This document shows, one piece after another, positions 38,086 through 38,734 of a stretch of DNA of 64,000 nt. Source of the stretch: Alphaproteobacteria bacterium (GTDB lineage Bacteria > Pseudomonadota > Alphaproteobacteria > UBA6615); assembly GCA_965261975.1 (NCBI GenBank), contig CBDHEC010000003.1, positions 1 to 64,000 of the forward strand, written 5' to 3'. The translations under genes and the position numbers were made by a program. The notes under the pieces were generated by a model. It did no database searches and was not told where the DNA came from. It saw nothing but the letters and a program-made list of their open reading frames with translations. Each line of letters begins with the position of its first letter. The stretch's first letter is position 1.

Positions 38086-38259
38086 TCAGGACCGGTTGAT
38101 GTCTTCGACCTGGGGACCACGCGAGAGGGGGAGAGTCCCGATGGTGCCGACTGTACCCGGCCCAGATGTCGGCCCTGCCGGGCGATCGAGCGCCTCGTCC
38201 GAGAGGTCGTCGCCGTCGAATTCTGGCTTCACATCCGATTTGGAAATACTTGAGGTCAT
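38086..38259 (-). CDS. Putative RiPP-like precursor peptide Y2 (57 aa; not in ORF track)
   Basis: MTSSISKSDVKPEFDGDDLSDEALDRPAGPTSGPGTVGTIGTLPLSRGPQVEDINRS; AAGGAAAGG RBS; paralog of Y1. Confidence 0.75.
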   Translation of the reverse strand: MTSSISKSDVKPEFDGDDLSDEALDRPAGPTSGPGTVGTIGTLPLSRGPQVEDINRS

Positions 38260-38261
38260 GA

Positions 38262-38381
38262 CTAGAGCCTTTCCTTGGGGTTCGCGTTTGGACAGGCTGA
38301 GCCGGCGCAGGCGGCGGAACCTTTGATGGTAAAGCCGGCCGTTGAGTTAAACGTCCCGCTTCCAACCTTAGAACCGGCGGC
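38262..38381 (-). pseudogene. Leaderless remnant of precursor X2
   Basis: AAGSKVGSGTFNSTAGFTIKGSAACAGSACPNANPKERL*; DNA similar to the X1 core; same stop-TC-ATG spacing to the next gene. Confidence 0.6.
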
Positions 38382-38405
38382 TTAGCCGCCGACTGAGAAA
38401 GCGCG

Positions 38406-38591
38406 TCAGGACTGGGTGATCGTCTCGGACTTTGCACCGGCTGTGCCGATGATAGACCCGATGCAGCCGGTGGCAGACCCGATGGCGGTACCCAACGTGC
38501 CGGGCCCGGCGGAAGGCCCCACGGGGCGATCGAGGGCTTCATCCGACAGTTCGTCGCCGTCGAACTCCAGTTTCGTACTACTTGTGCTCAT
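38406..38591 (-). CDS. Putative RiPP-like precursor peptide Y1 (61 aa)
   Basis: MSTSSTKLEFDGDELSDEALDRPVGPSAGPGTLGTAIGSATGCIGSIIGTAGAKSETITQS; GGAGAAAAGGG RBS. Confidence 0.75.
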   Translation of the reverse strand: MSTSSTKLEFDGDELSDEALDRPVGPSAGPGTLGTAIGSATGCIGSIIGTAGAKSETITQS

Positions 38592-38593
38592 GA

Positions 38594-38734
38594 TCATCCC
38601 TTTTCTCCCGTCTCCACATTCGAGCCTGCGGTACCGATACACTGCCCGGCGGTGCCGAAGCAGGGAATCCCGGTTCCGCTTCCAACCGTAGCGCCGGCGG
38701 ACAGGCCGGGGCGGTCGAGCGCCTCGTCGGTGAG
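38594..38734 (-). pseudogene. 5'-truncated precursor X1
   Basis: [46 protein letters not shown]; no in-frame start before the katG fragment. Confidence 0.7.

Follow-up and report, generated by a model that had tools for sequence, protein, structure and literature searches.

The 64,000 nucleotides analyzed here (positions 1 to 64,000 of contig CBDHEC010000003.1 in the alphaproteobacterial assembly GCA_965261975.1; hereafter the window) carry an array of four related units on the minus strand between positions 38086 and 38734. According to their translations and the list of open reading frames (ORFs), two of these are intact small ORFs, termed Y1 and Y2, and two are broken, termed X1 and X2. 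The array is probably the decaying remnant of a precursor locus for a peptide that is ribosomally made and modified post-translationally (RiPP), belonging to the thiazole/oxazole-modified microcins (TOMM) or linear azole peptides. In the following, G000 denotes the genome of the window, other G numbers denote comparison genomes, and P numbers denote database proteins. The array and its immediate surroundings comprise:

37952 to 38026, plus strand: tRNA-Val gene (anticodon CAC, found by ARAGORN), with the array directly downstream.
38086 to 38259, minus strand: Y2, intact, 57 residues, ATG start, leader ending in DDLSDEALDRP.
38262 to 38381, minus strand: X2, a leaderless X-type core remnant of 39 codons plus a stop codon, with another stop codon immediately ahead.
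38406 to 38591, minus strand: Y1, intact, 61 residues, ATG at 38591 and a further in-frame ATG at 38597.
38594 to 38734, minus strand: X1, a 5'-truncated X-type precursor of 46 codons, beginning in mid-leader at LTDEALDRP.
38729 to 38935, plus strand: 3' remnant of katG (the last 65 codons), antisense to X1 and fused to it; its inner end is the deletion junction.

An earlier note, made from the letters of this DNA alone, had described four paralogous short peptides on the minus strand with Cys in three of the four cores. Translation, ORF list and DNA repeats all agree on the four units, and the cores contain one Cys in Y1, none in Y2 and two each in X1 and X2. The leader of Y1 reads KLEFDGDELSDEALDRP, and its 38-residue core is rich in Gly, Ser and Thr, with six Gly-[Ser/Thr/Cys] pairs and a hydrophobic stretch rich in Gly-x3-Gly. 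Y2, listed in the protein library as P0001, matches Y1 at an E value of 3.1e-12, and its Gly/Thr-rich core is about nine residues shorter. X1 retains the last nine leader residues only, with no in-frame ATG, GTG or TTG upstream before the next stop codon; 40 of its 46 residues are identical to those of P0002, a full-length metagenomic homologue. The start codons of Y1 and Y2 are preceded by the purine-rich stretches AAGGGA and AAGGAAAGG, in agreement with the ribosome-binding sites claimed for both genes, and a scan of positions 37900 to 39000 gave an uninformative result, with one promoter-like site, located within Y1, and no terminators.

Ser, Thr and Cys together account for 12, 7, 10 and 10 residues in the four window cores. 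Gly-[Ser/Thr/Cys] pairs number 19 in total, compared with 8.78 in shuffled cores, and none of 5000 shuffles reached 19. Enzymes that form azoles favor Cys, Ser and Thr residues preceded by Gly, and the pairs thus fit the sites favored by such enzymes. The shortened, Cys-free core of Y2 fits drift after a loss of function.

The units are also related at the level of DNA, in the form of an 88-nucleotide repeat shared by Y2 and Y1 (74% identical, spacing 344), a 28-nucleotide repeat at the core starts of X2 and X1 (86% identical, spacing 320), and a 26-nucleotide leader segment that occurs three times in the array. As judged from sequence, the array is an X-Y unit duplicated in tandem, with divergence between the copies, and X2 is the mark of the duplication junction after Y1. 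In the 27 aligned codons of Y1 and Y2 from EFDGD to GT, the differences fall in 16 third, one second and three first positions; 11 of the 16 changed codons are synonymous and the other five encode conservative replacements. This third-position bias indicates that, after the duplication, purifying selection acted on the protein encoded in this frame. The motif L[ST]DEALDRP occurs three times within these 650 bases, compared with 48 pattern matches across the whole collection of genome contigs, and its clustering in the window is not due to chance. A contig produced by another assembler from sequencing run X1 spans positions 38001 to 39300 with no differences, so the junctions in the array are no binning artefact; this run, the only one to contain the stretch (0.94 of the sampled words, compared with 6-9% in 21 others), is probably the source sample, and the second assembly therefore represents no independent sampling.

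The motif ELSDEALDR(P) closes an acidic leader of about 23 residues, followed by a core rich in Cys, Gly, Ser and Thr. The three units other than X2 were scanned against Pfam, which gave no family at E≤10 (the Nif11 domain PF07862 included), and against NCBIfam, which gave no family model and no match at E≤10 to TIGR03793, the model of the nitrile hydratase leader peptide (NHLP) precursors. The match of Y1 to TigB, a methyl-cyclopropylglycine RiPP (NF047709), was dismissed at 19.4 bits versus a cut-off of 70, only the Gly/Ile/Ser-rich core being matched. A profile built from Y1, Y2 and X1 returned 20 matches at E≤1e-3 from 1.84 billion representatives, 14 of which were read as relatives; the long D-x-A-x-x-RP repeat proteins P0007, P0009, P0016, P0017, P0019 and P0020 were set aside by eye. 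The 14 relatives include the full-length X1 homologue P0002, other single-unit peptides, and proteins in which a leader-core unit ('DEALDRP plus Cys-containing core') occurs 2-11 times. Among the database proteins, P0003, P0004 and P0143 sit on a 7.6-Mb contig and P0005 on a 7.4-Mb contig. A wider profile (A5) recovered at least 395 proteins at E≤1e-3 from a set of 5.8 billion, in accordance with the conserved leader and variable cores proposed from the window; the best 120 of the 395 matches all lack a Pfam domain and are unnamed or 'hypothetical'.

Among 401 sampled genomes of the class, six had a match at E≤1e-3 (G000, G388, G262, G165, G122 and G285); those of G122 and G285 were weak, restricted to the core part of the profile and confirmed neither by the motif nor by profile A4. 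The family has 46 copies in the 2.5-Mb genome of G388, 17 in its congener G262 and eight in G165, and 1-21 copies in six of the 12 genomes of a second lineage, genome family f142. The arrays of G388 (L043-L048, L062-L068) and G262 (L050, L069-L073) are tandem and occupy orthologous positions among housekeeping genes (ccmF/H, parC, cobT, FTR complex), while each of the two species has its own copy numbers and cores. As several of these arrays end contigs, the copy counts are lower bounds. In 54 distinct genes from G388 and G262, leader codon entropy is 0.447, 0.249 and 0.948 at positions 1, 2 and 3, respectively; 52 of the 54 cores are unique, with 1-6 Cys per core and Cys accounting for 12.4% of core residues. 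Together, these values are the signature of a conserved leader and a hypervariable core. The motif is retained across lineages in which the remaining leader and the core diverge, and one related subfamily ends in DRAEGA, with G-A at positions -2/-1.

Several narrower searches returned nothing of use. A protein homologue search with Y1 alone gave one candidate and none that scored, comparison of Y1 and Y2 with 40 relatives and G000 gave nothing better than E 0.04, and pattern scans of genome contigs (581 and 48 stretches) and metagenome contigs (76 and 598 stretches) gave none that was confirmed, by tblastn in the case of the genome contigs. The contig scans missed the family, later found by profile, because they relied on exact patterns of 8-9 residues and on confirmation against Y1 and Y2 only. 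The multi-core protein P0003 had no tblastn match among plasmids. An ESM Atlas search with P0002 was not used: its first match (0.90) was of low recognition, and the clusters were unnamed, with a lantibiotic cluster at rank 15 (0.88).

Two side observations concern single members of the family. A 38-codon ORF just downstream of ftsK on another contig of G000 (C8, about 1840-1953, minus strand; L053) contains LDDEALDRP and then a core of 15 residues, one of them Cys. This ORF is the best match in G000 outside the array to the hidden Markov model of the leader (E 0.18), is not conserved at this position in seven congeners, and may be a further family member or chance. In G427 (C4, L106 12075-18233) and G165 (C31, L049 5052-7767), single peptides occupy one intergenic spacer after another in a trpD ... 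trpC gene series, in the orientation of the housekeeping genes, and it looks as if small peptide genes had spread into operon spacers. What seemed in that region of G427 to be cassettes of a peptide plus an ORF of about 381 residues was rejected, the ORFs being mutually unrelated; two are trpD (via the G165 orthologue) and a gene for an EctC-like protein (by eye).

The link to cyclodehydratase machinery comes from comparison genomes. On contig C2 of G427, about 3 kb separate two family peptides from the gene of a 784-residue fused cyclodehydratase, which scores 100.8 bits with TIGR03882 (cut-off 36.9), the model for TOMM leader-peptide binding, and 242.6 bits with the SagD/YcaO model TIGR03604 (cut-off 219.25). 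G427 also has a SagB-type gene, whose start is some 3.9 kb away from the cyclodehydratase. Between the peptides and the cyclodehydratase are genes for a cyclic-peptide-export ATP-binding cassette (ABC) transporter (TIGR01194, 309 bits, cut-off 286.2) and for an SPFH-like protein of 359 residues (GC content at third codon positions 0.84); an alternative ORF of 402 residues (0.47) is probably an off-frame artefact. The same three genes occur in G445 (contig C6), a member of the window's own family f1, with identities of 36-47%, 40.6% and 41.5% to those of G427, and two multi-core precursors adjoin them. In G388, the C-terminal half of a YcaO protein, 48% identical to that of G427, is followed by a SagB-type gene.

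An orthologous fused cyclodehydratase (38.6% identity over 767 residues versus that of G427) is found together with SagB in G015, also of family f1. There, the cyclodehydratase-SagB pair is surrounded by NHLP precursors, at least 21 of which exceed the cut-off of TIGR03793, forming a very large NHLP TOMM cluster on contig C60 (33238-39113, plus strand; 50387-53896, minus strand). The leaders that were read end in ELSDEALQNLAGG or DLSDEDLQNLAGG, and the former upholds the likeness to NHLP/Nif11 leader ends that had been pointed out for the window motif.

A complex of the G427 cyclodehydratase with its neighboring peptide was predicted with a score of 0.43, compared with 0.01 for the best of three controls. 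The mark applied is reached by 51 of 78 solved complexes and two of 108 mismatched pairs, but with scores of 0.60 or less it is reached by only five of the 78 solved complexes and by all four mismatches that passed among 180. Contact agreement between runs is at least 6%, and the partner has a predicted local distance difference test (pLDDT) value of at least 31. As complexes of leader and cyclodehydratase have already been solved, the pass may reflect what the predictor had learned from them, and the prediction gives weak support to an enzyme-peptide link.

Other modification and export systems were searched for as well. LanC-like proteins (PF05147) were found in none of five genomes, a result of little weight since the control was silent in 14 of 14, MNIO proteins were not found in any of the five, and matches to SPASM and C39 peptidase domains do not track the family peptides. 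An island on contig C26 of G388 (L084 1214-10706; L052 7996-12300), beside an integrase-like gene, encodes the NHLM exporter pair TIGR03796 and TIGR03797 and an AprA-like methyltransferase. Adjoining the pair is a 387-residue protein with a weak N-terminal Nif11 match; since this is a candidate substrate of its own, the pair was not counted as the exporter of the family. The half-YcaO of G388 lies about 10 kb further on, joined to a repeated phage-tail-like N-terminus, and an adjacent 969-residue ORF resembles, by eye, a phage tape-measure protein. A 1054-residue ORF beside one of the G388 arrays proved to be a GGDEF/EAL sensor and was set aside.

The katG remnant and the relatives of G000 bear on the history of the locus. 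The remnant is identical at 61 of 64 positions to the end (residues 689-752) of the 753-residue KatG of G010, the closest relative (93% DNA identity); this KatG matches TIGR00198 at 1207.8 bits. DNA homology between the window and G010 ends at position 38729, and this end, together with the truncation of X1, indicates that the 5' end of X1 and the first ~688 codons of katG were lost at one junction, 38729-38734. The DNA on the 3' side of tRNA-Val differs among the congeners, with a low-GC island in G010, a SagB-type gene in G002, a katG remnant in G004 (shorter than that of the window) and another gene in G011; in terms of sequence comparison, it is a variable-island site in the genus. The SagB-type gene of G002 (TIGR03605, 151.6 bits, cut-off 78.4) begins 115 bases after tRNA-Val, and that of G010 (151.8 bits, same cut-off) lies immediately upstream of an intact katG. 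In G010, a 116-nucleotide inverted repeat (97.4% identical) is located beside the SagB-type gene and again 2 kb past tRNA-Val, its copies on contig C5 (L026 6714-6829 and L027 5903-6015) bracketing a segment of about 24 kb that is inverted relative to the window. The repeat fits a 24-kb inversion, which accounts for the flanks being 24 kb apart and inverted in that genome. Low-GC islands (34-46% GC) adjoin both copies of the repeat.

No family peptide was found in any of 11 congeners, G010 and G002 included. The simplest reading would be that the genus formerly had a TOMM island between tRNA-Val and katG, whose decay took a different course in each line. Its leftovers would be the precursor genes in G000 and the dehydrogenase in G010 and G002, with the cyclodehydratase apparently kept by none.

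On the model of a decaying precursor locus, in working systems of the family the leader would be bound by the E1-like leader-binding domain of the fused cyclodehydratase, whose YcaO domain would turn Cys, Ser and Thr residues of the core into azolines. A SagB-type flavin mononucleotide dehydrogenase would oxidize these to azoles, and the ABC exporter, encoded together with the SPFH-like protein, would release the product. In the window, a diverged tandem duplication would have produced the order X1-Y1-X2-Y2 beside tRNA-Val, and a later deletion would have taken the 5' end of X1 and the first ~688 katG codons, presumably along with a cyclodehydratase and a dehydrogenase encoded between X1 and katG. 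This loss of enzymes would leave Y1 and Y2 as orphan precursors, which are probably unmodified and may or may not be expressed. The suggestion that the maturases had been deleted or are encoded elsewhere fits both the deletion junction at X1 and the gene content of G000.

A number of observations weigh against this model. G000 (94.6% complete, 59 contigs) has no match to YcaO (PF02624), to the G427 cyclodehydratase, to the SagB-type protein or to TIGR03605, and nothing therefore ties its own peptides directly to azole chemistry. Among the genes scanned from 27.4 to 50.5 kb, all are housekeeping genes or lack a Pfam match, and neither a tailoring enzyme nor an exporter is found near the array. 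The enzyme genes thought to have been lost between X1 and katG are reconstructed from G010 and G002, relatives that have no family peptide. Y2 is Cys-free, and the leaders of Y1, Y2 and X1 have neither a Gly-Gly site nor a TIGR03793 match. Contigs of RNA run X8 reach only the katG remnant and a glutathione S-transferase (GST) gene (90-95% likeness), providing no evidence for transcription of the array.

The evidence from other genomes has its own weaknesses. A cyclodehydratase is linked to the family at two loci only, the ~25 other peptide loci inspected being situated among housekeeping genes. The cyclodehydratase of G445 reads in three frames and the YcaO half of G388 is joined to a phage-tail-like N-terminus, such that the best-linked enzymes may be broken or misassembled. 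YcaO was not found in the peptide-bearing genomes G262 (96% complete), G165 (100%), G426 and G431, and G432 and G433 have YcaO genes of a different type (~25% identical) on contigs that carry none of the family peptides. All these genomes are drafts, so that a missing gene counts for little in either direction. The expectation of recurrent neighboring enzymes was borne out by the cyclodehydratase module at two loci, outside G000, and failed at most arrays.

One alternative, which we regard as unlikely, holds that the peptides are unmodified or disulfide-bonded bacteriocins like the class II microcins, in which a double-glycine-like leader would direct ABC export and cleavage and the Gly-rich core would be membrane-active. 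The leader fits the double-glycine register (L at -12, S at -11, L at -7), the DRAEGA subfamily even has G-A at -2/-1, and the Y1 core has its Gly-x3-Gly-rich hydrophobic stretch; Haft 2010 (PMC2887384) likens the residues that precede Gly-Gly in NHLP and N11P leaders to class II bacteriocin leaders. Moreover, most arrays lack a nearby tailoring enzyme, and G165 has its eight copies without any YcaO, SPASM, MNIO or LanC match. The window peptides themselves, however, carry G-P (Y1, Y2) or L-S (X1) at -2/-1 rather than G-G/A/S, as the earlier note had remarked in stating that no double-glycine follows the motif. Transporters with C39 domains occur in four of six peptide-positive and three of six peptide-negative genomes of f142, and in neither G165 nor G262. 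No C39-peptidase exporter lies near the array, and the only C39-like match of G000 is weak (22.6 bits, contig C51) and common to the peptide-free G010. There is no evident immunity gene, and the sole conserved module beside family members includes a cyclodehydratase.

It is likewise improbable that Y1 and Y2 are still working and are matured in trans by an enzyme in the ~5% of the genome that is unassembled or unbinned. Both ORFs are intact, with start codons and upstream purine-rich stretches, the assembly is 94.6% complete in 59 contigs, binned genomes often lose islands, and most precursors of G388 and G262 are far from any enzyme. Against this stand the broken state of X1 and X2, the deletion scar that ends the locus, and the loss from the Y2 core of about nine residues and all Cys. 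In addition, no YcaO, SagB or cyclodehydratase match exists in the assembled part of G000, none of the 11 congeners has a family peptide, and the SagB-bearing G010 and G002 lack a YcaO or SagD-type match.

A third explanation, which appears rather improbable, is that the family is mainly tailored by another class of enzyme (radical S-adenosylmethionine (SAM) enzyme, lanthionine synthetase or methyltransferase), the cyclodehydratase loci being a side branch. It would account for the missing YcaO match in the peptide-rich G262, G165 and G431, and NHLP/N11P leaders serve LanM as well as cyclodehydratases, according to parts of Haft 2010 (PMC2887384). G388 and G262 each have five SPASM-domain proteins, some of them unassigned, but two in G388 are PqqE, and G165 gave no SPASM match. 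Arrays of both G388 (C61, L045 4747-5622) and G427 (C8, L109 11028-12038) include a gene for a class I SAM methyltransferase, which could be a tailoring enzyme or a coincidence; apart from these methyltransferases, which are 22.7% identical over 220 residues, no enzyme recurs beside the peptides in both lineages. LanC-like proteins were not found in any of the five genomes, though with a control that was silent everywhere, and neither were MNIO proteins. Among the azol(in)e, thioether and epimerase chemistries that had been considered for the window peptides, the first is the one with genomic backing, in the YcaO genes beside family members in G427 and G445. A non-coding nature of the repeats (such as island debris or a structured element), with an accidental peptide reading, is very improbable, for despite the lack of expression evidence, the two units of four that are untranslatable as they stand and the location in a rearrangement hot spot, the third-position bias extends from the window copies to the 54 related genes, and the amino-acid motif is retained in lineages with differing leader remainder and core.

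Four known systems come closest to the family. The NHLP TOMM precursors (TIGR03793) share with it the same kind of fused cyclodehydratase (TIGR03882 plus TIGR03604) and a SagB-type dehydrogenase, a nearly identical leader end (ELSDEALDR here, ELSDEALQNLAGG in NHLP), hypervariable cores rich in Cys, Ser and Thr, and the possibility of many precursors per enzyme, also at a distance from it. They differ in that the leader of the present family has about 23 residues rather than about 75, without a nitrile-hydratase-like domain and, in Y1, Y2 and X1, without a Gly-Gly site at its end; in the exporter, TIGR01194 plus an SPFH-like protein here and the TIGR03794/6/7 trio there; and in the concatenated multi-core forms of up to 11 units found in this family. 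A genome-wide search of G000 with TIGR03793 gave no match at the array and four sub-cut-off matches in frames of 219-261 residues elsewhere. The short leader resembles the terminal part of an NHLP leader, with both the nitrile-hydratase-like domain and Gly-Gly missing.

Like the prochlorosins, in which a Nif11 leader serves one promiscuous ProcM (general background, and the abstract of PMC10783134), the family has dozens of dispersed genes with one leader and hypervariable cores in a small marine genome, in this case 46 genes in 2.5 Mb with arrays among housekeeping genes. Unlike in the prochlorosins, the leader is much shorter, and the linked enzyme is a YcaO cyclodehydratase rather than LanM, with no LanC-like match (subject to the silent control). 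Microcin B17, phazolicin and plantazolicin resemble the window peptides in their short leader and Gly-rich core with many Gly-Ser/Thr/Cys pairs, and such linear azole peptides are likewise made with YcaO, a SagB-type dehydrogenase and an ABC exporter; their cyclodehydratase, however, is split and not fused, there is no likeness of leader or core sequence, and the present family differs further in its huge copy number, its multi-core forms and the absence of remaining enzyme genes in the window. With the cyanobactins (PatE-like multi-core peptides), the family shares a YcaO heterocyclase as the linked enzyme and, in its own multi-core members, a recognition sequence that recurs ahead of every short core containing Cys, whereas the window copies are single-core and their motif differs from LAELSEEAL, the cyanobactin motif given by the earlier note. 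No PatA/PatG-type protease was seen, although no search was aimed at it.

According to passages of Haft 2010 (PMC2887384), gene finders frequently overlook TOMM precursors, which can be far from their enzymes, and as many as 12 NHLP substrates can share a single fused cyclodehydratase. Parts of Cox et al. 2015 (PMC4603692) group the D proteins of cyanobactins with those of NHLP/Nif11 systems. Between them, sections of the two papers describe fused cyclodehydratases and hypervariable cores for NHLP/Nif11 precursors, some fused NHLP-Burk precursors, and TOMM clusters flanked by tRNA genes or transposases. The short ELSDEALDR leader is not described in these sections of PMC2887384 and PMC4603692. 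A text search for the strings SDEALDR, DEALDRP and LSDEAL found no paper, supplementary precursor lists being outside its reach, and a keyword search of the literature gave nothing on this peptide family.

The family is a new leader type in a known RiPP class and not a new class. The proposal of a new RiPP precursor family is thereby upheld in so far as no model covers the leader, and qualified in that the class is known and only two of the four window units are intact genes. We tentatively put forward the broader view, which is somewhat less likely than its converse, that an undescribed short-leader TOMM family of marine Alphaproteobacteria exists, in which one fused cyclodehydratase would serve about 20-46 dispersed precursors in some small genomes, while concatenation of up to 11 units elsewhere would yield many azole peptides per translation product. 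Should the family prove to be of the kind proposed, a short-leader precursor type would be added to the thiazole/oxazole peptide class, and the family would join the prochlorosins as the second natural system in which a streamlined marine genome presents a single enzyme with dozens of hypervariable substrates, useful for the study of leader recognition, enzyme promiscuity and the ecology of peptide libraries. The nine-residue motif is a simple handle for mining, and the family size, dispersal and multi-core forms are grounds for a bench test. For G000 itself the significance is mostly historical, as a case of island decay at tRNA-Val in which congeners would keep different leftovers of one cluster.

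The window genes between 27.4 and 50.5 kb include glmS, glmU, a Liv-type ABC system, and genes for GST, GFA, SMP-30, EamA, a molybdopterin oxidoreductase, MsrA and SRAP. Two minus-strand ORFs, one of 419 residues (32894-34153) and one of 245 residues (46049-46786), have no Pfam match at E≤1e-5. A 1005-residue ORF at 42248-45265 (plus strand) has as its sole Pfam match a weak one to Cytochrome P460 (27.8 bits, residues 153-245), and 80% DNA identity to it is retained in G002.

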